Of a stretch of 64,000 nt of DNA, positions 10,863 through 61,377 are shown one piece after another. The notes under the pieces were generated by a model. That model saw only the letters and a list, made by a program, of their open reading frames with translations, had not been told where the DNA came from and did no database searches. Numbering within the stretch: the first letter of the stretch is position 1; every line of letters starts with the position of its first letter. Origin of the DNA: Candidatus Geocrenenecus dongiae (GTDB lineage: Archaea; Thermoproteota; Nitrososphaeria_A; Caldarchaeales; Wolframiiraptoraceae); the NCBI GenBank assembly GCA_023267855.1, contig JALNLN010000003.1, positions 19,452 through 83,451 on the forward strand, given 5' to 3'. The position numbers and the translations under genes are program-made.

Positions 10863-10866
10863 CTTT

Positions 10867-14928: not shown

Positions 14929-14988
14929 TTACCCAAGACACCCAGCAGTACGAAAAAGAATTTCTAAATAAAAAAGATTAAAGAACAT

Positions 14989-15828
14989 TCATTCTTCTCT
15001 TTCTATTTCTCCACCCATTTCCAGAACTATTTTCTTTAAATCTGCAGCAACGCTATTTATTTTTGCTATAGCTGTCTCTATCTTATTCGCTATAGAAGAG
15101 ATTTGAAACTCTATCTTCGATACTCCATCTTCTATGGTCTTTGGATGAGATTTAAGGTATATTCCATCATACTTCTTCACGATCTCGGCTATCCTAGGAG
15201 CTATACTCGATTCTGCAACCCTCTTCACATAAATCGTTTTATCAACACGGTAAACTTTCTTTAAGCTCTTCTCTATGACTGGCTTCAATTCTTCTTCAAA
15301 TATACTATATAGTTCTGCTGGAACTCCTGGTAAACATGCGATCCAGGTCTTACCGTATCTTAATAAGACTCCTGGAGCTGAGCCAACTCTATTTCTTAGG
15401 GGTTTAGCTCCTCTGGGAAGCATAGCCATCTTTAATCTAGATGGTGTGATTTCAGGAGATTCTACGACACCTTTCTCTGCAAGCATTCTATATCTCTCCT
15501 TAATCATTTCATATGCAGTTTTATTGAGTACTAGTTTTCTCTTTAAAGCTTTTGCGACACCTTCAAGAGTTAAATCATCGTATGTTGGTCCTAACCCGCC
15601 AGTAGTTATAATCCAGTTAACTTTTCTCTTTAAAGCATCTTTAATAACTGAAGCAATCTCATCTACAACATCTCCAACAGTAACCATCCTAACTACCCTC
15701 CCACCCATACTAGTTATCTTCTCTGCAAGCCATTTGGCATTAGTATTCAATATCCTACCATCAAGAATTTCGTAACCGATTGTAATCAGCTCGAAAACAG
15801 TCTGCTGAACCTTATCAAACCTCACCAT
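14989..15828 (-). CDS. CinA-like protein with an N-terminal MoaB/MogA-type molybdopterin-binding domain.
   Basis: LITIGYEILDGRILNTNAKWLAE...WIITTGGLGPTYDDLT is the CinA N-domain pattern. Confidence 0.55.
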   Translation of the reverse strand: MVRFDKVQQTVFELITIGYEILDGRILNTNAKWLAEKITSMGGRVVRMVTVGDVVDEIASVIKDALKRKVNWIITTGGLGPTYDDLTLEGVAKALKRKLVLNKTAYEMIKERYRMLAEKGVVESPEITPSRLKMAMLPRGAKPLRNRVGSAPGVLLRYGKTWIACLPGVPAELYSIFEEELKPVIEKSLKKVYRVDKTIYVKRVAESSIAPRIAEIVKKYDGIYLKSHPKTIEDGVSKIEFQISSIANKIETAIAKINSVAADLKKIVLEMGGEIEREE

Positions 15829-15994
15829 AAATCTTCTAGAACAAAAGATTCAACCTTCATATTTAAATTATATTAAGTCTGGAGAAAATAGGATTTAGAA
15901 AGAAAATTCAGAAAACATTATACGAAAGAGTTAAAAACGATTTTTAGAGATTATCAATAATAGAGTTTAGATAATGGTATGAGGATGAGGTGGG

Positions 15995-16657
15995 TTGATA
16001 AGTAGCTACAAAAAGATTTTTTCACCTTCACTAGAAGAAGAAATTCTAAGATCGTTTGAAGATTTGGAAAAATGTGAAATGTTAGAAGCTAGCAGGAGAT
16101 GCGGCATAGTTTATCTTGGAGATCCTGAGAAGAAGGGTTGTAAAAGATTTGTTGTTAATGTTTTGAATAAGACTTTCTCCGTTGATATAGATAAACGTGA
16201 GGTTCTCGATCTCATACTTGGTAAGCCAGCCCCGAAAGAACTATCACTAATTATCGTCAGATACATTACTTACTCAACAAGCGGTAAAGTTACAGATACA
16301 TGGGTAACCTATGAAAAGATTCCAGGCGCAAAAGAATATCTAGAATTATTTAGGAAACTGGTTATAAGACCTCTTGTAAGAGTTTTTGGTGAAAACCCTG
16401 AGAAATATGAGATAGTTTGTAAGAGACTTGGAGGAAAGAAGGAGAGGCTTGGAGGAATAAGCTATTCATTTCTATTCTTACCGAAGATCCAACTATTAAC
16501 ACAGCTTTGGAAAGCTGGAAGAGAAGAATATTCCACACCTATGGCGAATCTTTCTTTTAATAGTTCCGTAAAGCATTATCTCTCTGCAAGAGATCTACTA
16601 ATAGTAGGAAAAATAATGGTTGAAATGATGGAAGCTGAATTGAAGAAGATAACCTAA
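15995..16657 (+). CDS. Hypothetical protein (220 aa), no recognisable motif.
   Basis: ORF only; TTG start in the track; sits upstream of ftsY. Confidence 0.3.
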   Translation: MISSYKKIFSPSLEEEILRSFEDLEKCEMLEASRRCGIVYLGDPEKKGCKRFVVNVLNKTFSVDIDKREVLDLILGKPAPKELSLIIVRYITYSTSGKVTDTWVTYEKIPGAKEYLELFRKLVIRPLVRVFGENPEKYEIVCKRLGGKKERLGGISYSFLFLPKIQLLTQLWKAGREEYSTPMANLSFNSSVKHYLSARDLLIVGKIMVEMMEAELKKIT

Positions 16658-16725
16658 ATCTAGGCGTGTTCTAATAGAAGAACGGTAAATAATAGGTAAT
16701 ATTATTTTTAAGAATTGAAGATAAG

Positions 16726-17634
16726 ATGCTGGAATCTCTTAAAAAAGCATTCACAGAAATTGTTGAAGCATTCAAGTTTACTCAACTCTCGGAAAAAGAA
16801 TTAGAAAAACTAGCTGAAGAATTTAAGCTTACACTGATAACTAATGATGTTGCTTTAGAAGTTGCAGAGAAGCTTGGAGACATACTTAAAGAGAAGCTGG
16901 CCGGCATGAAGTTTAAGAGATTTACAGATCCAACTCAACAGATTAGAGAAGTGATGAGTAATGTTATAGAAGAAATCCTACCTGAAGAGAATAATTTAGA
17001 AAAAATGTTTATGGAGATTGAAGAGAAGAAATCTAGGGAGCCCTACGTAGTTCTATTCGTTGGACCTAATGGTGGTGGAAAGACAACAACAGTCGTCAAA
17101 TTTGCTAAACTACTTAAAGATAGAGGTTATAGTTCAATTATAGCTGCATCAGATACCTTTAGAGCTGGAGCTATAGAACAGTTGAAGAAGCTTGCAGAAC
17201 AAGTTAATGTAAGAGTTGTTAGTCAGAAGTATGGCGCGGATCCAGCTGCTGTTGCGATGGATGCAGTTATGAGCGCTAAAGCTAACATGATACCAGTTGT
17301 CTTAATAGATACGGCGGGAAGAACAGAGGTAGATATAAATCTTCTTGAAGAAATGAAAAAGATTAAGAAGGTTGTGAAACCTGATAAGGTAATATTTGTA
17401 GGGGATGCATTAATGGGAAACGTTGTAGTTGAGCAGGCTAGAAGATTCAACGAATACGTAGGCTTAGACTACATCATACTATCTAAATTTGATGCAGATG
17501 CGAGAGGTGGAGCAGCCCTCTCCATAAGTTATGTAATAGGAAAACCTCTACTACTAGTAGGAGTTGGACAAAGATTGGAAGATATAAAACCCTTCAATAA
17601 AAAACTCTTCAGAGAGATACTCTTAAAACATTAA
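16726..17634 (+). CDS. ftsY: Signal recognition particle receptor FtsY.
   Basis: GPNGGGKTTT G1 motif, DTAGR and the NG-domain layout; 302 aa. Confidence 0.85.
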   Translation: MLESLKKAFTEIVEAFKFTQLSEKELEKLAEEFKLTLITNDVALEVAEKLGDILKEKLAGMKFKRFTDPTQQIREVMSNVIEEILPEENNLEKMFMEIEEKKSREPYVVLFVGPNGGGKTTTVVKFAKLLKDRGYSSIIAASDTFRAGAIEQLKKLAEQVNVRVVSQKYGADPAAVAMDAVMSAKANMIPVVLIDTAGRTEVDINLLEEMKKIKKVVKPDKVIFVGDALMGNVVVEQARRFNEYVGLDYIILSKFDADARGGAALSISYVIGKPLLLVGVGQRLEDIKPFNKKLFREILLKH

Positions 17635-47803: not shown

Positions 47804-47943
47804 GCCGGGGTGCCTTAGCCAGGTAGAGGGTCGGCCTCGAGATCTCTCATATAATAATAGAGTGGTCAGAAGAAAGAGTGAGCCGATGCCCCAAAACAAG
47901 ATTGGGGAAACGGGGTTCGTGGGTTCAAATCCCACCCCCGGCG
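47804..47943 (+). tRNA. Intron-containing class II tRNA, most consistent with tRNA-Ser(CGA). It has a ~39-nt canonical intron and a second ~15-nt insertion in the variable arm.
   Basis: Acceptor GCCGGGG (47804-10) pairs with CCCCGGC (47936-42); discriminator G; T-arm GTGGG-TTCAAAT-CCCAC. D-stem CCTT/GAGG. Anticodon stem TCGGC (47831-35) pairs with GCCGA (47882-86). Loop C-T-CGA-G, then an intron at 47842-47880 whose ends, CTCT and AGAG, can form a BHB helix. The variable region is 32 nt and contains a CCCCAA/TTGGGG hairpin. Confidence 0.55.
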
Positions 47944-48046: not shown

Positions 48047-48850
48047 TTATCGGAGTTCTTTAACAATTTTCATTAATGTTCTTACTCTTTCGATGTCTAC
48101 TGGATTCCAGATTACTCCATCTTTCTTTAAATATGTTCCTACGATGACTCCATCAGCGTACTTTAACAACGTGACTACGTTGGATAGGTTTACTCCACTA
48201 CCAACAATTATAGGAGCTTCTGGAACAGCTTCTCTAACACTCTTCAAATCATCGATGTTTACCTCTATGCCAGTTTCAGGTCCAGTAATTATCAAGGCAT
48301 CCGCTCTCCCTCTATAGTATGCTTCTCTTGCAAGTTGTGTAATCGGTACATCATACAACTGTTTACCATGCTTAACAGCTATATCTGCAAATATCTTCAC
48401 ATTACTCTTAAGAAACTCTCTATACCGTATTGTCCTATAAGCTTCACCTTCGATTATTCCTTGATCTGTCGCTACGCATCCGATATGTACATTAGCTCTA
48501 ACAAAATCTGCACTTGTTATAGATGCTATTGCTATCGCTGCCATAACATCATTTCTCAAAACATTCACACCTACTGGAACATTGAATTTCTTCTTAATCT
48601 CCCATATAATGATGCTCATGCCTGTTATGACGTGTGGTGGAACTCTGCGAGGATAGAAAGGTGAATCCATAAAGTTCTCTACAAGTAATCCATCTACACC
48701 TCCCTCCACCAGAGTTTCAGCATCTCTCAAAGCATAATCTAAAACATCATTAAACTTGGTAGAGTTGGGAGAACCGGGTAAAGGTTTAAGATGAACCATT
48801 CCAATTATCGGTTTTTCCACTTTAAACATTCTTAAAACATTTCCGATCAT
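48047..48850 (-). CDS. BtpA/SgcQ-family TIM-barrel protein (paralog 1).
   Basis: KPIIGMVHLKPLPGSP ... GGVDGLLVENF is the BtpA signature; 267 aa. Confidence 0.6.
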   Translation of the reverse strand: MIGNVLRMFKVEKPIIGMVHLKPLPGSPNSTKFNDVLDYALRDAETLVEGGVDGLLVENFMDSPFYPRRVPPHVITGMSIIIWEIKKKFNVPVGVNVLRNDVMAAIAIASITSADFVRANVHIGCVATDQGIIEGEAYRTIRYREFLKSNVKIFADIAVKHGKQLYDVPITQLAREAYYRGRADALIITGPETGIEVNIDDLKSVREAVPEAPIIVGSGVNLSNVVTLLKYADGVIVGTYLKKDGVIWNPVDIERVRTLMKIVKELR

Positions 48851-48919
48851 GTCTAATGAGAATAGGTATCAAATAGTTTTAACCATTTTGTTTATAGAAG
48901 CGTTGGTTCTTGGATATTT

Positions 48920-50563
48920 TTATCTAGCTTTCTTCTCAGGTTTTATGCCAGCCATCATCATGCCGATCTCAGTTATTGTCGCTTCGGAAGAGTCGAGTAT
49001 TCCCATAAATCTTCCATCAAACATTACCGCAATCCTATCACATAAAGTCATTATCTCTTCTAAGTCTTCTGATACAAGCAGTATTCCTGAACCCTTTTCT
49101 TTCAACTCTAAGAATATCTTATGGGTATGTGTCAATGCTTTAAGGTCTAGACCGTATGTTGGATGGTAAGCTATGACTAGTTTTGGGTTTACCCAAAGTT
49201 CTCTGGCGAGGATGAGTCTCTGTATGTTACCGCCTGACAATATTCTTACCTCTGTGCTCCATATATCTGGAGTGAGTATCTCAAACTTACTTATGAGTTC
49301 TTTAGCGTGTTTTGTTATAGAGCTATAGCTTATTACGCCTTTCCAGGAGAATGGAGGTGAAATGTAGTCTCTCATCATGATGTTCTCTCCAAAAGTCATA
49401 GATTCTGCAACTCCCATAGCTCTCCTATCTTCAGGAATATGTCTAACTCCAAGTTTGGTCAGCTCTCTCGGAGATTTATTTGTAACATCTTTTCCTAGAA
49501 ATATGATTCTACCGCTCTTGACTTTCCTCAAACCTGTTAGAGCTTCAACAAGCTCGCTCTGCCCGTTACCCGCGATTCCTGCAATGCCGAATATCTCTCC
49601 TTCTCTAATGGTAAAGCTTACACCCTTAACAGCTTCAACACCTTGCCTACCTTCTACGTGTAGATCTATAACCTCAAGTATCGCTGTTTCTGCTTTAGGT
49701 GGTTTTTTAACTTTTTTAACTGGTTCTACCGTACCTATCATCATTCTTAGCAATTCATCCTTATTCGTTTCGTTAATGTATTTTGTTCCAACGTGTTTTC
49801 CAAGTCTAAGTACGGTAACTCTATCTGCTATCTCCATGACTTCCTCGATTCTATGTGTTATGAAAACCACTCCCCTATTCTCATCAGCTAGAGATCTCAA
49901 TACTTTAAATAATTCCTTAACTTCGTGTGGTGTGAGCATTGACGTTGGTTCATCAAGTATGAGTATCTCAGGGTTCCAGTAAAGTACTTTTAATATCTCT
50001 GCTCTCTGTTTTTCTCCAGCTGATAAATCTTCTACCATTGCTCTAGAATCTACTTTCAGATTATACCTATTCATCAATTCTACAAGTTTTCTTTCGATCT
50101 CCCTTATCGGGTATTTAAATGGATTGTATTCTCTTAAACCTAGAGCTATGTTCTCTACCAATGATAATGTTGGTACTAATGTGAACTCTTGATGAACCAT
50201 TGCAATACCTTGTTCTAATGCATCTCTAGGTGAATTGAATGTTACGGGTCTTCCTCTAACATAGATTTTTCCTGAAGTAGCTAGGTAGAATCCTGAGAGA
50301 ATGTTTGCTAAAACAGTCTTACCAGCACCATTCTCACCAAGCAGTGCATGAATCTCTCCAGCTCTTACATCAAAATTTACATGGTCTAAGACTAGATGCT
50401 CCCATATGCCTGGGAAATCTTTAACTATGTTCTCAGCTTTTAGTAGTATCTCTCCTTTTCTTGGCTTCTGATCACTCGTACTGAAACTACGTGAGCTAAC
50501 GATTTTGGAGTTTTCACTCTTCTTATGAAGAGATGATCTAAATGAGCTAACCACCGTCTTCAT
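48920..50563 (-). CDS. ABC transporter ATP-binding protein with two fused ABC domains (sugar/nucleoside type).
   Basis: Two Walker A sites (GENGAGKT, GIAGNGQS), two LSGG signatures; 547 aa. Confidence 0.8.
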   Translation of the reverse strand: MKTVVSSFRSSLHKKSENSKIVSSRSFSTSDQKPRKGEILLKAENIVKDFPGIWEHLVLDHVNFDVRAGEIHALLGENGAGKTVLANILSGFYLATSGKIYVRGRPVTFNSPRDALEQGIAMVHQEFTLVPTLSLVENIALGLREYNPFKYPIREIERKLVELMNRYNLKVDSRAMVEDLSAGEKQRAEILKVLYWNPEILILDEPTSMLTPHEVKELFKVLRSLADENRGVVFITHRIEEVMEIADRVTVLRLGKHVGTKYINETNKDELLRMMIGTVEPVKKVKKPPKAETAILEVIDLHVEGRQGVEAVKGVSFTIREGEIFGIAGIAGNGQSELVEALTGLRKVKSGRIIFLGKDVTNKSPRELTKLGVRHIPEDRRAMGVAESMTFGENIMMRDYISPPFSWKGVISYSSITKHAKELISKFEILTPDIWSTEVRILSGGNIQRLILARELWVNPKLVIAYHPTYGLDLKALTHTHKIFLELKEKGSGILLVSEDLEEIMTLCDRIAVMFDGRFMGILDSSEATITEIGMMMAGIKPEKKAR

Positions 50564-50699
50564 CTAAACTCTATAGTTATTTTAATCAAGATCCTTAATT
50601 AAAGTGTTAAGTTTTATGTTAAGATCAAATTACAGACTTCTATAAGTGATACGGATACAAATATACATATATTTTCAGATTTCTAGAAGATGAAGTAGG
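50564..50699. promoter_or_regulatory. AT-rich divergent intergenic region. It probably carries promoters for the ABC-ATPase/BtpA1 operon (minus) and the BtpA2-PfkB-SBP-permease-isomerase operon (plus).
   Basis: 136-bp AT-rich spacer between divergently oriented first genes of the two halves of the locus; TATA-like AT tracts. Confidence 0.3.
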
Positions 50700-51596
50700 G
50701 TGGAATATATGCCTGTCAAGTTGGAAGATCTAATCCCCGAGTGGGCTAAAGAATTTTATGGTAGAAGACTTCGAAGACTTAAAGACTTATTTGAGGTTAG
50801 TAAACCGATAATCGGGATGGTTCACCTTATACCTCTTCCAGGTTCACCAGCATACGGTGGATGGTCCATGGACGAAATCATAGAGAATGCTGTAAAAGAA
50901 GCGAAAATCCTGGTAGAAAACGGAGTAGATGGTCTGATAGTTGAGAATATGTGGGATCTCCCATACTATGTGGGCAAGGAAATCCCGCCAGAAGAAATTG
51001 CAGCCCATGCTGTTGCTGCACGGGAAGTGGTGAAATCCGTGAATGTACCTGTAGGCATAACCTCTATACATAATGGTGGAAGGGTGGCTCTAAGTATTGC
51101 GAAAGCTGCTGGAGCTAAGTTTATTAGAGTCTGCCTTTACACGGGCTCTCTCTTATGGGATACAGGTCAACTAGATCATGGGAACGCAGCTGAGTTGATG
51201 AGACTTAGAAAATTACTTGATGCATGGGATATAAGATTCTTCGCAGACGTGTATAAGAAGCATGCAGTCATTTTTCCAGGAATAACTCCAGAAATACATG
51301 CGATCTGGACTGACTTCTATTTAGCGGATGCTGTAATTGTAACTGGTAGGATGACTGGAGACGCTCCAGATCTAGATCTTGTTAAGAGCGTTAAGCAAGT
51401 AGTCGGAGAAACACCTGTGATTATTGGAAGCGGCGTTAATATCGAGAATGTTGAGGAACTTCTCTCTATTGGTGATGGAGCGATTGTTGGAACCTACTTC
51501 AAAGTTAAAGGAGTTACTCAGAATCCGGTAGATCCTGAAAGAGTTAGAAAATTCATGGAAAAAGTTAGGGAAATACGGTTGAAGCAGAATGGATGA
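50700..51596 (+). CDS. BtpA/SgcQ-family TIM-barrel protein (paralog 2).
   Basis: KPIIGMVHLIPLPGSP ... GVDGLIVENM; 298 aa; divergent from the ABC ATPase gene. Confidence 0.6.
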   Translation: MEYMPVKLEDLIPEWAKEFYGRRLRRLKDLFEVSKPIIGMVHLIPLPGSPAYGGWSMDEIIENAVKEAKILVENGVDGLIVENMWDLPYYVGKEIPPEEIAAHAVAAREVVKSVNVPVGITSIHNGGRVALSIAKAAGAKFIRVCLYTGSLLWDTGQLDHGNAAELMRLRKLLDAWDIRFFADVYKKHAVIFPGITPEIHAIWTDFYLADAVIVTGRMTGDAPDLDLVKSVKQVVGETPVIIGSGVNIENVEELLSIGDGAIVGTYFKVKGVTQNPVDPERVRKFMEKVREIRLKQNG

Positions 51597-52539
51597 CGAA
51601 TATGATATCGCAGTCGTAGGTGATATCAACTTAGATCTAATACTTCCTGTTAGAAATTTTCCATCTAGAGGTTCTATGGAATATGCTAGAGAGATGATTA
51701 AAAATCACGGTGGAGTAGGGAGGAATATCGCGATAGCATTATCTAAACTTGGTCTAAGAACAGTATTGATAGGTGCAGTAGGGGATGATGAGTCTGGTAC
51801 TGAATTAATAAGAGAGCTAAAAGATAATAGAGTTAATGTAAGTAGAGTAAGAGTTATCAAACACATGTGTACAGGAACCATACTGGTAATAGTTGACGAA
51901 GAAGGAGAGAGAACTATGATAGGTCATAGAGGAGCCAATACTAAGCTAAAGATAGAAGAAGAAGATATAAGCATAATCGAGAAAACAAAACATCTACACT
52001 TATCTGGCTACACGCTACTCAACGACGATATTTGGGAAAGCATCAATATGTTAATGAGGCGTGTAAGAAGTCTGAAAACAAAAACTAGTATAGATATTGA
52101 AGGAGTAGCCGAACATAAACCAACGCTACTCGAAGAGATGAAAGGTTTCTTCAACTACGTAATGGCAGGCGAGAATGAAGCAAGAAGATTTACTGGAGAA
52201 GAAGATCCAGAAACGATAGGATTGACATTGCTAGAGAAGATGAAAGCTGAGATCATAGCTTTAAAGATGGGACATAGAGGATGCATTATAGCAACTCGAG
52301 AGAGAATATTCCATACACCATCTTTCAAAGTCACTGTCGTAGATACTACGGGTGCAGGAGATGCTTTTAATGCAGGCTTCATATATGGAATGGCAAGAAA
52401 TCTCGACTTAAAGAAAGTAGCTATCTTAGCAAACGCTATGGGTGCATATAAATGCATGTGGTTTGGTACGAAAAATTTTCCAAGTTTAAGAAACCTGATA
52501 GATGCTTTTCCAGAACTTGGAGAACTAGCAATTCTATAA
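51589..52539 (+). CDS. PfkB-family carbohydrate/nucleoside kinase (ribokinase-like).
   Basis: N-terminal GxxNxD, C-terminal DTTGAGDAF; the start overlaps the BtpA stop (ATGGATGA). Confidence 0.8.
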   Translation: MDDEYDIAVVGDINLDLILPVRNFPSRGSMEYAREMIKNHGGVGRNIAIALSKLGLRTVLIGAVGDDESGTELIRELKDNRVNVSRVRVIKHMCTGTILVIVDEEGERTMIGHRGANTKLKIEEEDISIIEKTKHLHLSGYTLLNDDIWESINMLMRRVRSLKTKTSIDIEGVAEHKPTLLEEMKGFFNYVMAGENEARRFTGEEDPETIGLTLLEKMKAEIIALKMGHRGCIIATRERIFHTPSFKVTVVDTTGAGDAFNAGFIYGMARNLDLKKVAILANAMGAYKCMWFGTKNFPSLRNLIDAFPELGELAIL

Positions 52540-52639
52540 ACTCTAAAGATTCGAGAACTAATATTCTAAAAAGACGTTACCACACTTATGAGAACATATA
52601 AAAAACGCTAATATACTTCTCAATTTACATATATTATAT

Positions 52640-54055
52640 GTGTATACTATGAGAGAAATAAATGCTATTACAAAGGTAGGAGTAATAGTTATAACGATTA
52701 TATTGATTATAGCTGTAGTTGGCGGGGTTCTTTATTGGTATACAAGCATAGGTCCTGCTGCTCCTCGTAAAGTGAAGATCGCCGTCGTATCAGATATTGG
52801 TGGAAGAGGTGATTTATCATTTAACGATATGGCTTTTAAAGGAGGAGATGAAGCTGAGAGAGACTTCGGAATAGAAATGGTTGAACTTGTGAGTAAAGTT
52901 GAAGCAGATTATGTACCAAATCTAGAGATTGGTGCAAAGGACCCTGATGTTAAGTTAATAGTTGGAGTCGGTTTCCTTCTAAGCGATGCTTTAGTGCAAG
53001 TAGCGTTAAAATATCCTGATAAGAACTTCGCAGGAATAGATACATATTCTCAGGAAATAGTTAAAGAAAAATATCCTGATAAGTATCCACTACCAAACCT
53101 AATGGATATAAAATTTGAAGAACATAAAGGTAGCGCTCTTGTTGGAGCTGTTGGATGTTTGCTTGCAGCTTACTATAATGAGAAAGGTGGATCGTATCCA
53201 TATATTGGAGGAGTATTCGGGATAGAGATACCAGTACTGTGGAAGTTTGAGATAGGGTACAAGTGGGGATGTGATTGGGCACTAAAATGGTATGAAAAGA
53301 AGTTTGGACGAAAAGCACCTATAATCGGAGAAGACTCTAGGTATGGTAGTGGCCCCAATTGGAAAGATGGAATGTACTGTCCACCTGAAACACCTGGACA
53401 ATGCTGGTATAAAGGAAGAGTTCTATGGACGTACACAGGAACATTTAGCGATATAACAAAAGGCTATGAAGCTGCAAAACCAATGTATGCTAAAGGCGCC
53501 ATAGCAGTTTATAATATTGCAGGACCGCTAGGACTTGGAATAAATCAAGCAGTTAGAGAGATCGCTGAGGCAAGAGGGTTAAAGATGGGTCCACCTTTCT
53601 GGATAGGCGTTGATGCTAACCAGGACTGGATCAACCCAGGTTTTGTAATAGTCAGTATGATGAAGAGAGTTGATAAGGGTGTATATTATGCAACTAAACT
53701 AGTCTTAGAAGGAAAGTTCAGAGATGTCGTAAAACAGTATAATGGAGTATTAACTCTTGGGATAGGTACGACGGTAATGGGAACACCTATGGAAGGGATA
53801 TCTGCAAGTACACTTAAAGATCTAGACGAATTCATACAGATGGGTATTGAGGCAGAGAAACTTGTTGGAAAGAAAGTTTTACCAATGAGTCCTGAGGAGA
53901 TAAAAAGTAAAGTAAAAGAGATGCGGGAATCCGTCGCTTCATGGATATGGGATGCTCTAGCAGAACTTGAAGATAAGATAAGGAAAGGAGAAGTAGAAGT
54001 CCCACTAGCTTTCACGAAAGATGCAATAGACTACTGGAGAAATATACTTGGCTAA
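52640..54055 (+). CDS. BMP-family (Bmp/PnrA-like) ABC substrate-binding protein with an N-terminal signal/anchor.
   Basis: N-terminal TM segment, then KIAVVSDIGGRGDLSFNDMAFKG, typical of BMP nucleoside/sugar SBPs; 471 aa. Confidence 0.6.
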   Translation: MYTMREINAITKVGVIVITIILIIAVVGGVLYWYTSIGPAAPRKVKIAVVSDIGGRGDLSFNDMAFKGGDEAERDFGIEMVELVSKVEADYVPNLEIGAKDPDVKLIVGVGFLLSDALVQVALKYPDKNFAGIDTYSQEIVKEKYPDKYPLPNLMDIKFEEHKGSALVGAVGCLLAAYYNEKGGSYPYIGGVFGIEIPVLWKFEIGYKWGCDWALKWYEKKFGRKAPIIGEDSRYGSGPNWKDGMYCPPETPGQCWYKGRVLWTYTGTFSDITKGYEAAKPMYAKGAIAVYNIAGPLGLGINQAVREIAEARGLKMGPPFWIGVDANQDWINPGFVIVSMMKRVDKGVYYATKLVLEGKFRDVVKQYNGVLTLGIGTTVMGTPMEGISASTLKDLDEFIQMGIEAEKLVGKKVLPMSPEEIKSKVKEMRESVASWIWDALAELEDKIRKGEVEVPLAFTKDAIDYWRNILG

Positions 54056-55187
54056 GTCCAGTAAAAACTTTCAAAAATTTTATCATATATATTTTTTATT
54101 TAATAAGACTTATGTATGGAGACGCCCATTTGGTGAGGATAGAATGTTAGGCACATTTAGCAAGTTGAAGAAACCTATTCTCGAGACTTTAATAGCCATA
54201 CTAATAGGTTTTATAGGTGGAGCTGTATTAATGATCATTTTTAGATACGATCCGATTACAGCCTATGTAGCATTATTCCAAGGAACACTATTGTCGGTAG
54301 ACGGTATATTCGAAAGTCTTGCAAATGCTGTTCCATTAATGTTAACTGGATTAACTTTTGCAATTGGAGTTAGATCTGGATACTTTAACGTAGGTGCTGA
54401 GGGGCAGGCATATATTGGCGCTATGGGGGCCGTGGTGTTGGCGGGTAGCATATCTTTGCCTCCCGGAATACATGTACTCGCTACAACACTTTTCGCAATG
54501 ATTGTAGGTGCTTTATGGTCTCTTCCAGTATCTGCATTAAAAGCTTGGAGAGGCGTACATGAAGTAGTCTCCACGATAATGTTAAACTGGATTGCTTTAT
54601 ATCTTGTAAGATACTTGATTGAGTACTACTACTATGAACCTGGTAGGGCTGAAAGAGCTCTGCCAGCTCTACCCACCGCGCGATATGATGTGATAGGAGC
54701 TTCTCTAACGACATTTATCTTCGTAGCCATAGGGTTTATAGTTCTCACGTATTTTATCTTATGGAGAACCACTTTAGGATACGAGCTTAGACTAACTGGA
54801 AGTAATCCGGAAGCTGCAAGATACGTCGGAGTAAACTATGTGAAGATAGTCTTTCTAAACTTCTTCATCGGAGGACTTGCAGCCGGTCTAGCTGGTGCAT
54901 CACAAGTTATCGGCAGACCTCCTGCATGGACTATCTATAAAACACTCGGTAACGTGATTAACCTAGGATTCAACGGTATTGGAGTTGCATTAATTGGTAG
55001 AAATCACCCTTTTGGAATAATCTTTTCATCAATATTTCTAGGCATACTCCTGTACGGCTCAAGGTTTATGCAGTATCTGGGAGTAGACCCGGATCTAACA
55101 GTAGCTATCAATGGAATCATAGTTTTATCTCTATCGCTACCTGAATTGTACTCGATAATAAGGAAGCACATTGTAGGAGGGAGGTAG
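54048..55187 (+). CDS. ABC transporter permease (BMP-system permease 1).
   Basis: 379 aa, about 9-10 TM; overlaps the SBP stop. Confidence 0.7.
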   Translation: MAKSSKNFQKFYHIYFLFNKTYVWRRPFGEDRMLGTFSKLKKPILETLIAILIGFIGGAVLMIIFRYDPITAYVALFQGTLLSVDGIFESLANAVPLMLTGLTFAIGVRSGYFNVGAEGQAYIGAMGAVVLAGSISLPPGIHVLATTLFAMIVGALWSLPVSALKAWRGVHEVVSTIMLNWIALYLVRYLIEYYYYEPGRAERALPALPTARYDVIGASLTTFIFVAIGFIVLTYFILWRTTLGYELRLTGSNPEAARYVGVNYVKIVFLNFFIGGLAAGLAGASQVIGRPPAWTIYKTLGNVINLGFNGIGVALIGRNHPFGIIFSSIFLGILLYGSRFMQYLGVDPDLTVAINGIIVLSLSLPELYSIIRKHIVGGR

Positions 55188-55188
55188 C

Positions 55189-56181
55189 TTGAAGATTTCG
55201 AGAAAACTAAGATTCTTGATAATTGGTTTCCCATCGTTCATTATGTTCTTATGTCTATTAAGCGTTCTCGGTGTCGAGCCAATACACATACTTGAAACTA
55301 CTTTCATGGCCATGACTCCACTAATGTTGGCAGCTGTAGGTGAGAGTATAAATGAGAGGTCTGGGGTCGTAAATATAGGCTTAGAAGGAATCTTCTTAAT
55401 AACCGCTGTAACTGGAGTTTACTACGCTGAAGTTACAGGCAGTGGACTAGGTGGGATATTAATAGGTGGAGCGTTAGTAGGAGCGTTGATAGGTTTCTTT
55501 TTCGGTTTCATAAGTAGTTATGGGAAGGCTGTGCAAGTAATTGCTGGTATGGGTTTAAACTTGGTAGGCTTAGGTTTAGTACCTTTTATGATGATGGCTT
55601 TCTGGGCGTTTCCAGGAATCCACATTTTTGATCCGGACCTAAAGATTGGAACCTTAAATATCCAGATAGGTAAAGAAATCTTTAGACTTAGTCCTATAAC
55701 AATCTTCGCAGTTGCCATCACAATCTTTCTACATATCTTGCTGTACCGTACATTAATTGGGTTGAGAATTCAGGCTGCTGGAGAGAGACCAGAAGCCCTA
55801 GACGTAGCAGGAATAAATGTTAACTTAACTAGAGTATTAGCTAGTACTTTATGTGGAAGTCTAACAGGTATCGGTGGAGCGTTTATGCCTTTAGGATGGT
55901 TTGGAGGATTAGTTAAAGAAATTACTGCTGGAAGAGGTTTCATAGCTCTAGCTGCAGCAGTTTTCTCAGGTTTAGATCCAATACTTGCAGCTGTATCTTC
56001 ATTTATTTTCGGATTCTCTGAAGGATTAGCATTCACAATAATGATAACACCAACAATAAAAGAAGTTATACCACACTACTTCATTAACATGATCCCCTAT
56101 ATCGTAACGATAATAGCTTTAGCAATAGTGGGATCTAAGAGATTCCCCAAAGCATTAGGTAAACCATATATCCGTGAATAA
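55189..56181 (+). CDS. ABC transporter permease (BMP-system permease 2).
   Basis: 330 aa, multi-TM; starts 2 nt after permease 1. Confidence 0.7.
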   Translation: MKISRKLRFLIIGFPSFIMFLCLLSVLGVEPIHILETTFMAMTPLMLAAVGESINERSGVVNIGLEGIFLITAVTGVYYAEVTGSGLGGILIGGALVGALIGFFFGFISSYGKAVQVIAGMGLNLVGLGLVPFMMMAFWAFPGIHIFDPDLKIGTLNIQIGKEIFRLSPITIFAVAITIFLHILLYRTLIGLRIQAAGERPEALDVAGINVNLTRVLASTLCGSLTGIGGAFMPLGWFGGLVKEITAGRGFIALAAAVFSGLDPILAAVSSFIFGFSEGLAFTIMITPTIKEVIPHYFINMIPYIVTIIALAIVGSKRFPKALGKPYIRE

Positions 56182-56195
56182 ATAAAATTGATTAT

Positions 56196-57452
56196 ATGAG
56201 CAAAGTTTTACTTATACCTGTAGCTTCACCCTTACATAACCCATTCTTAGTGGGAAAAGTATTAAATCTATACCAAAAGAAATTAGATAAGATTATTGAT
56301 AGCTCTCTTTCTCTAATTATTAAGGGAGAAGATTTAGAGAAACTTGAGATTGATAAGAATGTTCTTGGAATAATCGCTCCATTAACTGGAGGCACGGAAC
56401 ATATAATTCAACATATATCCGAGAAGTGTGGATTCACCTTACTAGTTCCCCATACTTCAATGAATAGTCTTCCAGCAGCCTTAGAAGCATTCTCGAAAAT
56501 TAAGAATGCTGGAAGATCTTGGATAATTCTTGAATGGCCTCCGGGAAAACGTGTCCAGAAATTTGCAAAAGCTTGGAGAACTATTAGTGAGATTAAGAAG
56601 ATGAAGATAGGGTTAATCGGAGAACCTTCTCCTTGGCTAGTTTACAGTTCAGGCGAAGACGTCGAAAAGAACATAAATGTGTTGTTCGAAGAATTGGAGA
56701 TACTGAGAATTGATGTTAGCGAGGTTTATCAGGAATTTAGTAAGATTTCTGAGATTGATGTAGATGTTCTGAAACGAGAATTAATAAAGAAGACTAAAGC
56801 CATACGTATTCCAGAAGATGAAGTAGCTAAATCATTAAAGATCCATCTATCCCTGAAGAAGATAATCGAGAAGTATGGTTTAGATGCTGTAACGGTTAGA
56901 TGCTTCAACATTATTACAGACCTCGATACGACTGCATGTCTCTCCGCATCCCTACTTAATAGTAAAGTTAGCATGTTTGGATGTGAAGGCGATATACCAG
57001 CCTTACTAACAATGATAATTTTCTCAAAACTCGCTGAAGCTCCATCATTTATGGGGAACATTAACTGGATCCAAGATACTACAATTACCATAGCACACTG
57101 CACAGCCCCATTAACCATTGCAGAGAAATTTGAATTAGACAACCATTTCGAATCTGGGAGAGGGGTTGGGGTAAGATGTTACGTTCCAGAAAACCGTGAA
57201 GCCACCTTAGGTAGACTAGATCCTGTATCGAGAGTGATCAGGTACGTTGTAGGTAGAACGATTAAAAAACCTGTCCAAGAGAAAGCTTGTAGAACACAGT
57301 TGAACATAAAAATAAGAAGTAAGGACAAAAGTAAACTTGCTCAGATAGTAGAAGAATCGATTGGCAACCATTATGTAGTTGTATTTAAAGACATTTCTGA
57401 AGAACTAGGATATTTAGCTAGAATCATGGGTATTAGATTGGAGAGGATCTGA
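56196..57452 (+). CDS. Putative sugar isomerase of the L-fucose/L-arabinose isomerase superfamily.
   Basis: 418 aa; FGCEGDIPALLTMIIFSKL and C-terminal NHYVVVFKDISEELGYLARIMGI resemble the metal-binding and C-terminal motifs of FucI/AraA-like isomerases. Uncertain. Confidence 0.4.
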   Translation: MSKVLLIPVASPLHNPFLVGKVLNLYQKKLDKIIDSSLSLIIKGEDLEKLEIDKNVLGIIAPLTGGTEHIIQHISEKCGFTLLVPHTSMNSLPAALEAFSKIKNAGRSWIILEWPPGKRVQKFAKAWRTISEIKKMKIGLIGEPSPWLVYSSGEDVEKNINVLFEELEILRIDVSEVYQEFSKISEIDVDVLKRELIKKTKAIRIPEDEVAKSLKIHLSLKKIIEKYGLDAVTVRCFNIITDLDTTACLSASLLNSKVSMFGCEGDIPALLTMIIFSKLAEAPSFMGNINWIQDTTITIAHCTAPLTIAEKFELDNHFESGRGVGVRCYVPENREATLGRLDPVSRVIRYVVGRTIKKPVQEKACRTQLNIKIRSKDKSKLAQIVEESIGNHYVVVFKDISEELGYLARIMGIRLERI

Positions 57453-57527: not shown

Positions 57528-58553
57528 TCAGTAGTTGCTTGCAAGCCAACAAGCAATATAGTGTTCTTTTTCTACGTCTATAAATGGTGGTTCTTCCCTA
57601 AAACATTTTTCTTTAGCGAAAGGGCATCTTGGATGAAATCTACATCCAGCAGGTATATTTATGGGGTTGGGGATCTCACCACTTATCTCTAGTTTTCTAG
57701 TTCTTTCATGTAGAGGTTTAGGTATGGGGATGGCTGAAAATAAGGCTTGAGTATAAGGATGTAAAGGATTTTCGAATAATGTTTTCGTAGGTGCTTTCTC
57801 CACAATTTTCCCAAGATACATTACTGCGATTGTGTCCGCAATATACTTCGCCACCGCGAGGTCATGTGTAATGAATATGTAAGTGAGGTTAAGCTCATTC
57901 TTCAACTCTATCATAAGGTTTAAAATTGAAGCTCTAAGAGAGACATCTATCATTGAGACAGGTTCATCTGCTACTATTAATTCTGGTTTTAATATTACGG
58001 CTCTAGCGATCGCCACTCTTTGCCTCTGGCCTCCACTAAGGTTTCTCGGATAAAGTTTGTAGAACTCATCTGGAGGAGTTAAACCCACCTTCTCCAATAT
58101 GTTTAAAACGATTTCTTTAGCTTTTTCTCTATTATCGACTATCATGTGTATCTTTAAAGGATCTTCCAAGATACTTCCGATAGTCATTCTAGGATTGAGT
58201 GAAGCGTAAGGATCTTGATATATTATTTGCATCTTCCGTCTCAATTTTCTAAGAGATTCACCTTTAAGATATGTTATATCTTGTCCATTGAAATATATTC
58301 TTCCTTCTGTTGGATCTATCAATCTTATTATCAATCTGCCTAACGTAGTTTTTCCGCTCCCACTTTCTCCCACCAATCCAAGTGTTTCACCTTTCTTAAC
58401 TGTTAAATCTACTCCATCTACAGCCTTCACGAATATTCTCTGTCTCGCAAGAAGTCTCTCTAGGAAGCTTTTCTGAACAGGGAACCATTTCTTTAATCTA
58501 ACTAGACGTACTATTTCAACCACTTCTTTATCCTCCGTAGAGATGACATGCAA
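57528..58553 (-). CDS. Oligopeptide/dipeptide ABC transporter ATP-binding protein (OppF/DppF-like).
   Basis: GESGSGKTT, LSGGQRQR, C-terminal oligopeptide-ABC extension with Cys residues. Confidence 0.8.
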   Translation of the reverse strand: MHVISTEDKEVVEIVRLVRLKKWFPVQKSFLERLLARQRIFVKAVDGVDLTVKKGETLGLVGESGSGKTTLGRLIIRLIDPTEGRIYFNGQDITYLKGESLRKLRRKMQIIYQDPYASLNPRMTIGSILEDPLKIHMIVDNREKAKEIVLNILEKVGLTPPDEFYKLYPRNLSGGQRQRVAIARAVILKPELIVADEPVSMIDVSLRASILNLMIELKNELNLTYIFITHDLAVAKYIADTIAVMYLGKIVEKAPTKTLFENPLHPYTQALFSAIPIPKPLHERTRKLEISGEIPNPINIPAGCRFHPRCPFAKEKCFREEPPFIDVEKEHYIACWLASNY

Positions 58554-59487
58554 CAGCCCCTTCTCCTAGACTTAATAATTGAGGTTCCTCAATTTTACAC
58601 TTCTCCATGGCGTGGGGGCATCGAGGCCAGAATCTACATCCCTGCGGTGGATTCCTCATGTCGGGCGGAGAACCAGGTATCGGTTTAAGTTCAATTTCTG
58701 TTTTCTCTATATCTGGGATCGATTGTATCAGCAATTTGGTGTAGGGGTGTAATGGTTCTACTGCTATACGTTCAGCTCCTCTAACTTCACAAATTTTTCC
58801 TGCATACATTACTACAACCCTATTGCTTCTCTCTATAACTAACGCGATGTCATGTGTTATCAGTAGAATGCTTATATTTCTCTCATTTCTCAAATCTTCT
58901 AATAGATCCATTATCCTTGACTGAACTATAACATCTAAAGCAGTTGTTGGCTCGTCTGCTATCAATAGATCTGGATTCAAGACTGTTGCCATTGCTATCA
59001 TAGCTCTCTGTCTCATACCCCCACTCAATTGGTGTGGATAATCGTCTATTCTATCTGGCGGTATTCCTACTCGTTCGAGAGACTTTATAGCCATCTCTCT
59101 TGCATGTTCTTTATCTATTTTAAGGTGTACTGTAATAGTTTCTATAATCTGGTCTCCGATCCTCCTTAATGGATCAAGGCATGTTAATGGATCTTGAAAT
59201 ATCATTCCAATTTTTCTACCACGTATTTTCCTAAGTTCTCTATCAGTTTTCTTAAGAATGTTCTCACCATCTAAGATTATTTCTCCTCCAACTATCTTAC
59301 CGGGAGGTGGTAAGAGCTTGACTATAGATAGACCTAAAGTTGATTTACCTGATCCTGATTCTCCGACGAGTCCCACGATCTCCCCTCTAAATATATCTAA
59401 ACTAACGTTATCGACAGCTTTTATCACATTTTTACGTGAGAAGTAATATGTTTTTAGATTAATTATTCGGAGAAGCTTCTCGAACAT
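58528..59487 (-). CDS. Oligopeptide/dipeptide ABC transporter ATP-binding protein (OppD/DppD-like).
   Basis: GESGSGKST, LSGGMRQR; overlaps the downstream ATPase gene by 26 nt. Confidence 0.8.
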   Translation of the reverse strand: MFEKLLRIINLKTYYFSRKNVIKAVDNVSLDIFRGEIVGLVGESGSGKSTLGLSIVKLLPPPGKIVGGEIILDGENILKKTDRELRKIRGRKIGMIFQDPLTCLDPLRRIGDQIIETITVHLKIDKEHAREMAIKSLERVGIPPDRIDDYPHQLSGGMRQRAMIAMATVLNPDLLIADEPTTALDVIVQSRIMDLLEDLRNERNISILLITHDIALVIERSNRVVVMYAGKICEVRGAERIAVEPLHPYTKLLIQSIPDIEKTEIELKPIPGSPPDMRNPPQGCRFWPRCPHAMEKCKIEEPQLLSLGEGAVACHLYGG

Positions 59488-60345
59488 TCAAATTCCTACC
59501 TCTCTTAAACCTAGATACTCACTTACACTCTCACCTAGAAATGTAAACCCAACTGCTAGCATTATTATCATTAGTCCTGGAAAAGTTACGAGCCACCAAT
59601 ACCCAGAGACTAGGTAAGGCTGACCAGCTCTAAGATCGAATCCCCAATCAGGTGTAGGTGCTGGGACACTTAAACCGAAGAAACTAAGAGCAGCTTCTGT
59701 TAAAACTATGTCTGCTACACTTAAAGTGAAGACGGCTGTTACAACGGATATTACATTGGGAAAAATATATCTAGAGAGTATTGATGAAGGCTTTGCACCT
59801 ATAGCTACAGCTGCTTCTACGTAAAGTTGATTCTTTACATTTAGTGTCTGGGCTCGAACCATTCTAAAATATGTTGGGATATAGACTACAGCAATAGAGA
59901 TCGCCGTATTTATAATTCCAGGTCCCAACGCTGCAGCTATCGCTATAGCCAGTATTAAGCTTGGAAAAGCGTAAATAGAATCCATTATTGTTGTAGATAT
60001 TCTATCAAGTAATCCTCCAACGTATCCTGATATTAAGCCTAGCGGAACACCAATGATCATTGATAAGATTGTAGAAAGAGCTACAACTATCAACATTGTT
60101 CTCGCACCGTACACAGTCCTGCTCCACATATCTTGTCCTATCTTATTTGTGCCGAATAGATGTTCTGGAGAAGGTGGCTGAAGACTCAATCCCACAGATT
60201 TAGTTGGATCGTATGGTGCTAAGAAGTCTGCAAAAACAGCCATGAAGACTACAAACAATATCATAGATAGGCCGACAATCCCTATTGTTGTTAGAGGCAT
60301 CTTGAGAACCATTCTCCTTAGAATAGGTCTAAAAGTATACATCAT
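59488..60345 (-). CDS. Oligopeptide ABC transporter permease (OppC/DppC-like).
   Basis: 285 aa, 6 TM, EAA-like loop. Confidence 0.75.
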   Translation of the reverse strand: MMYTFRPILRRMVLKMPLTTIGIVGLSMILFVVFMAVFADFLAPYDPTKSVGLSLQPPSPEHLFGTNKIGQDMWSRTVYGARTMLIVVALSTILSMIIGVPLGLISGYVGGLLDRISTTIMDSIYAFPSLILAIAIAAALGPGIINTAISIAVVYIPTYFRMVRAQTLNVKNQLYVEAAVAIGAKPSSILSRYIFPNVISVVTAVFTLSVADIVLTEAALSFFGLSVPAPTPDWGFDLRAGQPYLVSGYWWLVTFPGLMIIMLAVGFTFLGESVSEYLGLREVGI

Positions 60346-60351
60346 TTCACC

Positions 60352-61377
60352 TCAATATCTAATTCTCGGATCTATGTACGCATAGCACACGTCAACTATG
60401 AGATTCATGACTGATACAATTATTGCGAAGAAGATTACTGTTCCCTGAACTGTTGTATAATCTCTGTACTGTATTCTTTCAAGTAGAAAGGTACCCATAC
60501 CGGGCCAGCTGAATGTTGTCTCCGTTAGGACAGCTCCTGTCATTAAGAGTGCCAGCTGAAGCCCCATCATCGTGAGAATAGGGATGAAAGAATTTTTCAG
60601 TACATGAAGCATTATTCTGTATTCTGGTAGACCTCTAGCTCTAGCCGCAACCACAAAATCTTGCTTTAAGATTTCTTCTACGCTTACGCGTGTAACTCTA
60701 GAGAAAACACCTGAAATTACTAATCCAAGGGTTACTGCAGGTAGAGTTATATGTTTTAATGAGCTTATAAAACTATCAATCTTACCTGAGATTAAACTAT
60801 CTAAGATGTATAGCCCAGTATACGTTGGAGGTTCTAAACCTACTCCTATTCTTCCGCCTACCGGGAATATCTTCAACCCTACTGAAAATACTAGCTGTAG
60901 CATCATGCCTATCCATGGTATAAATAATGCATATGCTACAGCACTGTAGACTCTTACTGCTGAGTTTACTTTACCTCCTATCCCTGCACCTATTGTTCCT
61001 AGAGTCATACCTATCAATAAGCTTACTAGGAATCCAGCTATAGCTAACTCAATAGTTGCAGGAAGATGCTCCATTATCTCAACTACTACAGGTCTCTTAC
61101 CCCAGATAAGAGACCTCCCGAGATCTCCTTGAACAAGCTTCATCAAGTAGTTAACATACTGTACGATAAGCGGTATTTCATTACCATTCTCATCTATCAA
61201 TCCGAGCTCCTTCTTCAATTCTACAACTCTTTCCATAGGAGCCTTCATTCCAACTATAGCAATTACTGGATCTCCTGGAAGAACTCTCATTATAAAGAAG
61301 ACCAGCGTTACAAGTATGAGTATCGTTGGTATCAGGGCTATAGCTCTAGCTATTATAAATACTTTCAGTGAAGTCAT
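60352..61377 (-). CDS. Oligopeptide ABC transporter permease (OppB/DppB-like).
   Basis: 341 aa, 6 TM. Confidence 0.75.
   Translation of the reverse strand: MTSLKVFIIARAIALIPTILILVTLVFFIMRVLPGDPVIAIVGMKAPMERVVELKKELGLIDENGNEIPLIVQYVNYLMKLVQGDLGRSLIWGKRPVVVEIMEHLPATIELAIAGFLVSLLIGMTLGTIGAGIGGKVNSAVRVYSAVAYALFIPWIGMMLQLVFSVGLKIFPVGGRIGVGLEPPTYTGLYILDSLISGKIDSFISSLKHITLPAVTLGLVISGVFSRVTRVSVEEILKQDFVVAARARGLPEYRIMLHVLKNSFIPILTMMGLQLALLMTGAVLTETTFSWPGMGTFLLERIQYRDYTTVQGTVIFFAIIVSVMNLIVDVCYAYIDPRIRY

Follow-up and report, generated by a model that had tools for sequence, protein, structure and literature searches.

A 64-kb window of Candidatus Geocrenenecus dongiae contig JALNLN010000003.1 (assembly GCA_023267855.1, positions 19,452 to 83,451; 35-40% G+C) contains a locus of eight genes that encode an ATP-binding cassette (ABC) importer of the Bmp type, a PfkB-family kinase, a 418-aa isomerase-like protein and two paralogs of the BtpA/SgcQ family, BtpA1 and BtpA2 (Table 1). 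All eight open reading frames (ORFs) were recovered by a mechanical ORF listing at the positions reported in an initial annotation of this DNA, and its identification of all eight proved right when examined with Pfam and NCBIfam and, for the 418-aa protein, by predicted fold. The locus is not an assembly accident, since at least 24 contigs, labelled 'Nitrososphaerota archaeon' and drawn from independent assemblies of hot-spring DNA, carry the identical set of genes.

Table 1. Genes and intergenic region of the BtpA locus, in window coordinates.
Feature	Position	Strand	Remarks
BtpA1	48047..48850	-	267 aa; BtpA/SgcQ-family TIM barrel; follows the ATPase gene on its strand
Fused double-domain ABC ATPase of a CUT2/Bmp-type importer	48920..50563	-	547 aa; two PF00005 (ABC_tran) stretches
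AT-rich divergent intergenic region	50564..50699		Separates the ATPase/BtpA1 unit from the BtpA2 operon
BtpA2	50700..51596	+	298 aa from GTG, or 295 aa from ATG 50709; N-terminal extension
PfkB-family ribokinase-like sugar or nucleoside kinase	51589..52539	+	316 aa
Bmp/PnrA-family substrate-binding protein	52640..54055	+	471 aa; N-terminal membrane anchor; alternative start 52649
ABC permease 1 (BPD_transp_2)	54048..55187	+	Likely true start ATG 54144, 347 aa
ABC permease 2 (BPD_transp_2)	55189..56181	+	Abuts permease 1
AraA/FucI-fold protein, putative aldose-ketose isomerase	56196..57452	+	418 aa; accessory member of the locus

The gene junctions required some revision. The stop of BtpA2 and the start of the kinase gene overlap by 8 nt (ATGGATGA), with the kinase ATG inside the overlap; an overlap at this point had been predicted correctly, but not its literal form, which was given as of the ATGATGA type. 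The divergent spacer measures 136 bp, as first described, when BtpA2 begins at the GTG and 145 bp (to 50708) when it begins at the ATG that is its start in most public gene calls. Likewise, of the overlapping or abutting junctions attributed to the transporter genes, that between the two permeases was confirmed, whereas the overlap of the binding-protein gene with permease 1 depends on a TTG start at 54048 that the orthologs do not support. The ATG at 54144, favoured by most public gene calls and by orthologs of 347-348 aa (L001, L097 and L098), leaves an 88-nt gap. In L097 a 330-aa permease 2 ortholog overlaps permease 1 by 4 nt, and in the window the 418-aa gene follows permease 2 after 14 nt.

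The importer has the architecture of CUT2-type systems, in that a fused double ATPase is accompanied by two BPD_transp_2 permeases (PF02653, 117.8 and 100.8 bits for permeases 1 and 2) and a binding protein; the sugar-type double ATPases that are among the best NCBIfam matches of the ATPase all score below cutoff. The binding protein matches PF02608 at 112.9 bits (cutoff 24.1), and its best match in the Protein Data Bank (PDB) is 4PEV, an uncharacterised 422-aa chain (3.8e-44), followed by Lbp and then by the nucleoside-binding proteins BmpD, PnrA and BmpA. Searches of the literature on PDB entries 4PEV and 7X0R returned nothing useful. HMMER alignments place its D52, F61, N62, D134, F269, D325 and K342 on PnrA D27, F36, N37, D108, F186, D238 and K260, so that by alignment the stacking Phe pair, the Asp/Asn loop and the ribose-binding Asp and Lys of the PnrA nucleoside site are all retained. 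We take PnrA F36, D108, D238 and K260 to be contact residues, the last three as ribose contacts; roles in nucleoside contact of PnrA D27 and F186 and of BmpD N28, the equivalent of N37, are documented (PMC7093131). The binding protein is nearest to the Bmp/PnrA nucleoside receptors.

Both BtpA paralogs exceed their family cutoffs (30 bits for PF03437 and 153.4 bits for TIGR00259), BtpA1 with 303.7 and 303.6 bits and BtpA2 with 252.7 and 252.4 bits, and they are 42% identical to each other. Against NF045918, the model for the photosystem I biogenesis protein BtpA, they score 281.1 and 216 bits, respectively, below the cutoff of 400. The BtpA/SgcQ family has been known since the 1990s, comprises about 1,500 clusters at 50% identity (E<=1e-10) and is not known to include a protein of solved structure. 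BtpA1 falls in the mainstream clade of this family and BtpA2 in a tightly conserved sub-clade with an N-terminal extension, which reduces to about one representative in a 50%-identity library. The AlphaFold2 (AF2) model of BtpA2 is a confident triosephosphate isomerase (TIM) barrel (mean predicted local distance difference test score, pLDDT, 94.6) with no specific relative in the PDB. The BtpA profile has the beta7-beta8 phosphate-binding motif in common with TrpA, GGGPS and OMPDC, and nothing else in common with other TIM barrels; by its (beta/alpha)8 barrel and the Gly-rich phosphate-binding motif that follows beta7 and beta8, the family belongs to the phosphate-binding (ribulose-phosphate-binding-type) TIM barrels.

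Alignment of 81 members from both paralog clades identified an invariant set consisting, in BtpA2 numbering, of H42, E82, N83, N125, R143, D154, D183, K187, H188, D210, T219, K268 and R281. The phosphate motif is also invariant (G243-S244-G245 and G264; G-S-G / G-T), and most of the invariant residues are located at or just past the barrel strands, as judged from the secondary structure of the model. As modelled, this set resembles an active site that would act on a phosphorylated ligand and may depend on a metal or a Lys, and chemistry of the aldolase or epimerase type might be conjectured for it. The initial annotation's statement that BtpA/SgcQ proteins have no established biochemical function was in agreement with our literature searches, since those on BtpA, SgcQ, PF03437 and COG0434 found no enzymatic function assigned and the searchable literature holds no catalytic assignment. 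Cyanobacterial BtpA has no assigned reaction either and is reported to stabilise glutamyl-tRNA reductase (PMC11449065).

A third type of BtpA, 36-37% identical to BtpA1, occurs at L050:1547-5671 and L015:15879-19266 in a one-strand cluster that also encodes a FucI-like protein, an EamA transporter and, in L050 only, an HDAC-like deacetylase; the L050 cluster adjoins genes for an amidohydrolase, a beta-lactamase-like protein and an AnmK-like kinase. Members of the isomerase-like family and a BtpA protein are thereby paired independently of the window locus. A metagenome scan with BtpA1 returned five loci with only one close relative, and the contexts of distant BtpA1-like genes (Poribacteria and other bacterial loci) were uninformative. 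Long apparent BtpA fusions in L039, L085 and L088 were rejected as over-extended ORFs in high-GC DNA.

The window kinase is a PF00294 protein (192.3 bits, cutoff 25.8) with the N-terminal NxD motif (GDINLD, residue 11) and the C-terminal GAGD motif (GAGDAF, residue 255) of PfkB kinases, and its PDB relatives are ribokinases. Kinases adjacent to BtpA2 resemble ATP-dependent ribose-1-phosphate (R1P) kinase with scores below cutoff; against two NCBIfam equivalog models the window kinase scored 153.9 (cutoff 299.65) and 144.3 bits (cutoff 330), a pattern repeated in seven other BtpA2-adjacent kinases, and its score on the pseudouridine-kinase model was only 42 bits. PMC9700705 notes that R1P could be the acceptor of many archaeal sugar kinases for which none is known, and also describes a Pyrobaculum R1P/pyrimidine-nucleoside kinase in an organism that lacks ribose-1,5-bisphosphate (R15P) isomerase and in which the fate of R15P is open.

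Matches of the 418-aa protein to known families are weak at the sequence level: AraA_central gave a sub-cutoff 20.8 bits, and the NCBIfam model for SftI (NF048012) 72.1 bits against a cutoff of 700. Its 114 homologs are named 'L-fucose isomerase-like' or hypothetical. An AF2 model built on an alignment of 50 homologs was confident (pLDDT 95.8; predicted template modelling score, pTM, 0.94), and a Foldseek search of the PDB with this model returned L-arabinose isomerases at template modelling (TM) scores of 0.82-0.84 (E ~1e-20), followed by L-fucose/D-arabinose isomerases at 0.72-0.78 (FucI 0.75) and nothing else significant. The model has the three-domain fold of the AraA/FucI superfamily. Because the model is confident and its Foldseek matches were confined to AraA and FucI proteins, the earlier description of the protein as FucI/AraA-like holds with respect to its fold, and a function as an isomerase is plausible.

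By profile alignment, the invariant Glu of a GCEGD motif in the 418-aa protein (E264) falls on E306 of the E. coli AraA GAEGD motif, whereas the position of AraA E333 is occupied by G287/N288 and the second acidic residue is not kept. The AraA alignment ends before the His residues, and H301, H317 and H392 are invariant in the 418-aa family. The metal and catalytic residues of AraA are presumably E306, E333, H350 and H450 in the numbering used here. Three cysteines (C248, C302 and C365) are likewise invariant in the family, and a fourth (C263) is nearly so; to our knowledge the classical AraA and FucI active sites use no cysteine, and these residues could form a metal or redox site.

To follow the locus across genomes, BtpA2 was searched for in one genome per species, which yielded 192 relatives; the best 80 (56-86% identity) were kept, and neighbours were counted by tblastn with the window proteins and by clustering all neighbours within 7 kb of BtpA2. 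These 80 loci come from Desulfurococcales, Thermofilaceae, 'Nitrososphaeria', Hadarchaeota, Bathyarchaeia, an Asgard Hodarchaeaceae metagenome-assembled genome (MAG), Anaerolineae/Chloroflexota and a Terriglobales MAG, so that BtpA2 identity remains at 56-86% across phyla. A PfkB kinase is located within 200 bp of BtpA2 at 59 loci and within 7 kb at 64. Parts of a Bmp-type transporter were found near BtpA2 at only 11 of the 80, a BtpA1-like paralog at eight and a FucI-like gene at six. The conserved unit is BtpA2 plus PfkB, mostly without a transporter, and not the whole island. The initial proposal that the island is a unit therefore applies to close relatives and to a few scattered lineages, while elsewhere the BtpA2-PfkB pair alone is conserved.

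All eight families recur in a different order in two MAGs. L097 has a FucI-like gene (a 310-aa call), PfkB and BtpA2 on the opposite strand, and then the ATPase, binding protein, two permeases and BtpA1. L098 has a 421-aa gene, the two permeases, binding protein, PfkB and BtpA2 on the opposite strand, and then the ATPase and BtpA1; the 421-aa gene has no Pfam match and is putatively FucI-like by its size and position. In L010, which is cut just upstream of BtpA2, the window order is kept by BtpA2, the FucI-like gene and the four genes between them. Much of the set is present in Hadarchaeota L065, where the contig ends at the ATPase and the binding protein and permeases are out of view, and Asgard L078 has the set without the isomerase-like gene. 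An ATPase ortholog adjoins BtpA genes in L097, L098, L065, L078 and L091. Across the related loci BtpA1 tends to share the orientation of the transporter genes, as in L097, L098 and L078, and BtpA2 is coupled to the kinase. BtpA2 and Bmp-transporter genes occur together in at least five arrangements (window/L097/L098, L037/L044, L048, L075 and L078), found in one locus of Anaerolineae and in distinct lineages of archaea. As a lineage-specific accessory, the isomerase-like gene is only loosely tied to the locus: it accompanies BtpA2 in L010, L065, L097 and, putatively, L098, and distant homologs in Aigarchaeota (50% identity), Infirmifilum (44%) and Hyperthermus (34%) sit in unrelated neighbourhoods, unlinked to BtpA (L007-L009).

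Across phyla (L037, L048, L075 and L078) the binding protein is 66-71% identical to that of the window, the ATPase 43-61% and the permeases 43-52%. We would expect the binding protein of an ABC importer to be less conserved than its ATPase and permeases. Its high conservation, together with that of BtpA2, hints at horizontal spread or unusually strong constraint.

The neighbour clusters, identified with NCBIfam and Pfam, point to nucleoside or ribose-phosphate metabolism. A DeoD-type purine nucleoside phosphorylase is found at 13 loci, a CD3072-type TudS-related desulfidase at eight, an amidohydrolase deaminase of the 5'-methylthioadenosine (MTA)/5'-deoxyadenosine type at six, and an eIF-2B-related isomerase of the R15P/5-methylthioribose-1-phosphate (MTR1P)-isomerase family at four, the last being nearest to ribose-1,5-bisphosphate isomerase (246 bits, cutoff 314). 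Three loci have a phosphopentomutase-like mutase of the PGM/PMM family, which according to PMC11641776 supplies the Thermococcus phosphopentomutase, two have a ribose-phosphate pyrophosphokinase (phosphoribosyl pyrophosphate synthase), and one, Terriglobales L085, has PsuG (Indigoidine_A, 404 bits). In total, nucleoside or ribose-phosphate enzymes are present at 20 of the 80 loci and a Bmp transporter at 11, and the union of the two is 29 loci. Because the arrangements differ between Thermofilaceae, Desulfurococcaceae/Thermogladius, 'Nitrososphaeria', Hadarchaeales and the Asgard MAG, the nucleoside association is not one inherited accident. This context supports the initial guess of a nucleoside or pentose route, but not its description as archaeal, because the module is also found in Anaerolineae and Terriglobales.

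The richest of the related loci is in the Desulfurococcaceae MAG KM4337-20 (L048, ~3800-17000), where some 13 kb encode a Bmp transporter, a TudS-like protein, BtpA2-PfkB, a nucleoside phosphorylase, an energy-coupling factor (ECF) module of two ATPases and EcfT, and an adenosine-type deaminase. In the Terriglobales MAG (L085:5795-9928), a molybdenum cofactor (Moco) riboswitch (64 bits), moaA, PfkB, BtpA2 and PsuG/Indigoidine_A follow one another on one strand; the PfkB gene is split over two frames by a frameshift or assembly error, and two tandem nadA riboswitch matches (L085:10024-10134) precede the next gene (10061-11248). In the window and in 13 bacterial BtpA2 loci, a search with Rfam revealed no riboswitch in direct control of PfkB-BtpA2, and the Moco element before moaA in L085 was the only match nearby.

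From the observed gene identities, folds, conserved residues and neighbourhoods we infer the transported ligand, the order of steps and the BtpA chemistry of the following model, to which we give about an even chance: a ribosyl compound is imported and phosphorylated, and the pentose phosphate is then converted by BtpA. Two sub-modules would travel together, a Bmp/PnrA-type importer with BtpA1, which may be co-transcribed with the transporter genes, and BtpA2 translationally coupled to PfkB. The binding protein would take up a ribofuranosyl compound, most likely a nucleoside. PfkB would phosphorylate the ribose moiety, converting ribose, ribose-1-phosphate or the nucleoside to ribose-5-phosphate (R5P), R15P or the nucleoside monophosphate, respectively. 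The BtpA barrels would then move the phosphorylated pentose to central metabolism by aldol cleavage, epimerisation or isomerisation, and the isomerase-like protein could, as an option, feed a free aldose into the same route.

Several observations weigh against this model. The binding-protein ligand is read from alignment only, and PMC3573665 reports that some Bmp proteins take other ligands, e.g., riboflavin. The window kinase falls below every NCBIfam equivalog cutoff. Nucleoside cleavage here is unexplained because the 64-kb window has no nucleoside phosphorylase, R15P isomerase or deaminase by tblastn and no RuBisCO motif; it likewise has no nucleoside hydrolase and none of the other nucleoside or ribose-phosphate enzymes counted above. 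PsuG occurs at none of the 80 loci except L085. Moreover, since 51 of the 80 BtpA2 loci have no nucleoside-related neighbour and most have no transporter, BtpA2 and PfkB may be a general housekeeping pair. Our confidence in the model is no higher because the window lacks a nucleoside-cleaving enzyme and because so many BtpA2-PfkB pairs lack a nucleoside neighbour.

The presence of an AraA/FucI-fold protein with an aligned catalytic Glu raises the alternative of a sugar route like those of ara, fuc or sulfoglycolytic Embden-Meyerhof-Parnas (sulfo-EMP) metabolism, in which a free sugar is imported, isomerised by the 418-aa protein and phosphorylated by PfkB, and BtpA cleaves or epimerises the ketose phosphate. 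Consistent with this idea, the best family match of the 418-aa protein is SftI (E=3.6e-20), the window kinase also resembles fructokinase, IolC and sulfofructose kinase, the third type of BtpA lies with FucI-like and EamA genes in L050 and L015, and UxaE-like and xylose-isomerase-like TIM genes are found near BtpA2 in L026-L030. We nevertheless consider a sugar route unlikely. The isomerase-like gene goes with BtpA2 at only six of the 80 loci and occurs by itself in L007-L009, BtpA2 more often has nucleoside genes as neighbours, the base-stacking Phe pair and the remaining PnrA contacts are retained in the binding protein, and the AraA E333 position is not conserved.

A second alternative is that there is no shared pathway, and that a self-contained housekeeping pair of BtpA2 and PfkB happens to lie beside an unrelated importer and isomerase-like gene. 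The many pairs without a transporter, with unrelated flanks such as tRNA synthetases and archease, and the unlinked homologs of the isomerase-like protein are as this explanation would predict. On the other hand, BtpA2 and the Bmp transporter co-localise in at least five arrangements, the order being shuffled and the membership kept, and BtpA1 has the same orientation as the transporter genes, which makes this explanation improbable.

It is also conceivable that BtpA is not an enzyme and serves as a stabilising or regulatory partner of the kinase or transporter. The sole experimental description of a BtpA protein is of such a non-catalytic, stabilising role (PMC11449065), which counts against our model too, and BtpA2 is tightly coupled to a single partner protein. 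Yet both clades maintain the invariant set of charged and polar residues and an intact G-S-G / G-T phosphate motif. In addition, the BtpA2-linked kinases fall into many sub-clusters only 28-45% identical to the window kinase while BtpA2 remains so highly conserved, the opposite of what is expected of co-evolving binding partners, and we therefore regard a non-enzymatic BtpA as very improbable. Finally, salvage of a vitamin or cofactor of the B6, thiamin or riboflavin type, with vitamer import, a ribokinase-superfamily kinase and a BtpA acting like ThiE, PdxJ or PdxS, can be almost dismissed: on NCBIfam the ATPase and permeases score best with the 'putative B6 ABC transporter' models (NF047928-NF047930), several loci have ECF transporters close to BtpA2 and a BtpA1-like gene adjoins a CTP-dependent riboflavin kinase in L099, but a B6 transporter was rejected because all scores are far below cutoff (465.4 vs 670, 130.5 vs 400 and 131.6 vs 465), NCBIfam has no model that the binding protein matches, and the kinase is a PF00294 ribokinase-like protein, not a member of the PdxK/ThiD family.

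Several known systems resemble the import of a ribosyl compound proposed here, each in part. In Thermococcus kodakarensis the pentose bisphosphate pathway is fed by NupDABC, an ABC transporter of the Bmp type that takes up nucleosides (PMC12628685). Like NupDABC (TK0657-TK0660) and the PnrA/BmpD/BmpA-NupABC systems, the window importer has a Bmp binding protein with aligned contact residues, two BPD_transp_2 permeases and a double ATPase. It differs from them in that its binding protein, of 471 aa, exceeds theirs in length, carries an insertion, is extended at the C terminus and is nearest to 4PEV, and in that the linked enzymes are BtpA proteins and not those of the RuBisCO pathway. Similarity to the archaeal pentose bisphosphate pathways is seen in Thermofilaceae-type loci, where a phosphorylase, a PfkB-type R1P kinase and an R15P isomerase adjoin BtpA2. 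The window itself differs from both the carboxylating pathway of Thermococcales and the non-carboxylating pathway of haloarchaea in having no phosphorylase, R15P isomerase, RuBisCO, ribulose-1,5-bisphosphate (RuBP) phosphatase or FucA-type aldolase, and contributes only a candidate kinase. BtpA is part of neither published pathway and is not mentioned in PMC9700705.

Among systems that contain BtpA proteins, the E. coli sgc operon (sgcX-sgcB-sgcC-sgcQ-sgcA-sgcE-sgcR) likewise has a BtpA-family protein, SgcQ, downstream of a step that delivers a phosphorylated sugar. That operon combines phosphotransferase system (PTS) uptake with one BtpA copy and a ribulose-phosphate-epimerase paralog, whereas the window has an ABC importer and PfkB, two BtpA copies and an AraA/FucI-fold protein. 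Synechocystis BtpA belongs to the same Pfam and TIGRFAM families as BtpA1 and BtpA2, but is described as a thylakoid-associated stabiliser of glutamyl-tRNA reductase (PMC11449065), while the host of the window is a non-photosynthetic archaeon and the context is one of transporter and kinase. The 418-aa protein shares with AraA, FucI and SftI the three-domain fold and a GxEGD motif with its invariant Glu on AraA E306, and its family has invariant His as well; it differs in being ~80-170 residues shorter, in lacking an E333 equivalent, in its three invariant Cys and in scoring below cutoff on all models. As in the psuK-psuG pair, a PfkB gene adjoins a nucleotide-processing step in L085, where PfkB, BtpA2 and PsuG are separated by gaps of 9-11 nt.

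The locus type itself, an importer with a kinase and downstream enzymes, is already familiar. What is new is the tightly conserved BtpA2-kinase module, repeatedly set in nucleoside or ribose-phosphate neighbourhoods in two domains of life, and a short list of substrates for it, the candidates for BtpA being narrowed to the phosphorylated pentoses or nucleotides that a ribokinase-like partner would make. The module bears on the question of how nucleoside ribose is disposed of in archaea without a classical non-oxidative pentose phosphate pathway or a complete RuBisCO route (PMC9700705). One tentative proposal, which we consider unlikely to hold, is that in archaea and certain bacteria without the non-oxidative pathway BtpA2 and the kinase form the missing outlet through which ribose phosphate derived from nucleosides is disposed of without RuBisCO; BtpA2 could then be, e.g., an aldolase or isomerase of pentose (bis)phosphates with R5P, R15P or RuBP as its substrate. 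If correct, this would be the first catalytic function for PF03437, covering E. coli SgcQ and cyanobacterial BtpA, and would explain the fate of R15P in organisms that have an R1P kinase and no R15P isomerase. If instead BtpA2-PfkB is a housekeeping pair or BtpA a chaperone, the locus would be an ordinary importer beside unrelated genes.

The divergent region contains a near-perfect 10-nt inverted repeat at 50581-50603 (TTTAATCAAG / CTTAATTAAA, 3-nt spacer) that could be a regulator site. It is not kept in the corresponding spacers of L097 and L098, alignment with which revealed no conserved operator, and the locus contains no regulator gene. The region matched no Rfam family; a scan for sigma-70 promoters and intrinsic terminators, which is not applicable to archaea, gave no more promoters than chance would and no site resembling a terminator.

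Just upstream of the locus, an Rfam tRNA model matches 140 nt of the plus strand (47804-47943; 43.4 bits, above the gathering threshold), as might an archaeal tRNA with an intron; ARAGORN reported no tRNA at this position. Directly downstream, on the minus strand (57528-61377 and beyond), lie an operon for an Opp/Dpp-type ABC importer (two oligo_HPY ATPases, two BPD_transp_1 permeases and an SBP_bac_5 binding protein), which is not part of the BtpA locus in L097 and L098, and then a ribosomal-protein/SecY cluster. Finally, a MAG of the same species (GCA_038728025.1; L003:17423-20534) carries an insertion between the genes for the Opp-type binding protein and cytidylate kinase that is absent from the other assemblies and contains an IS605-type OrfB/TnpB (Cas12f1-like TNB) and several small ORFs.

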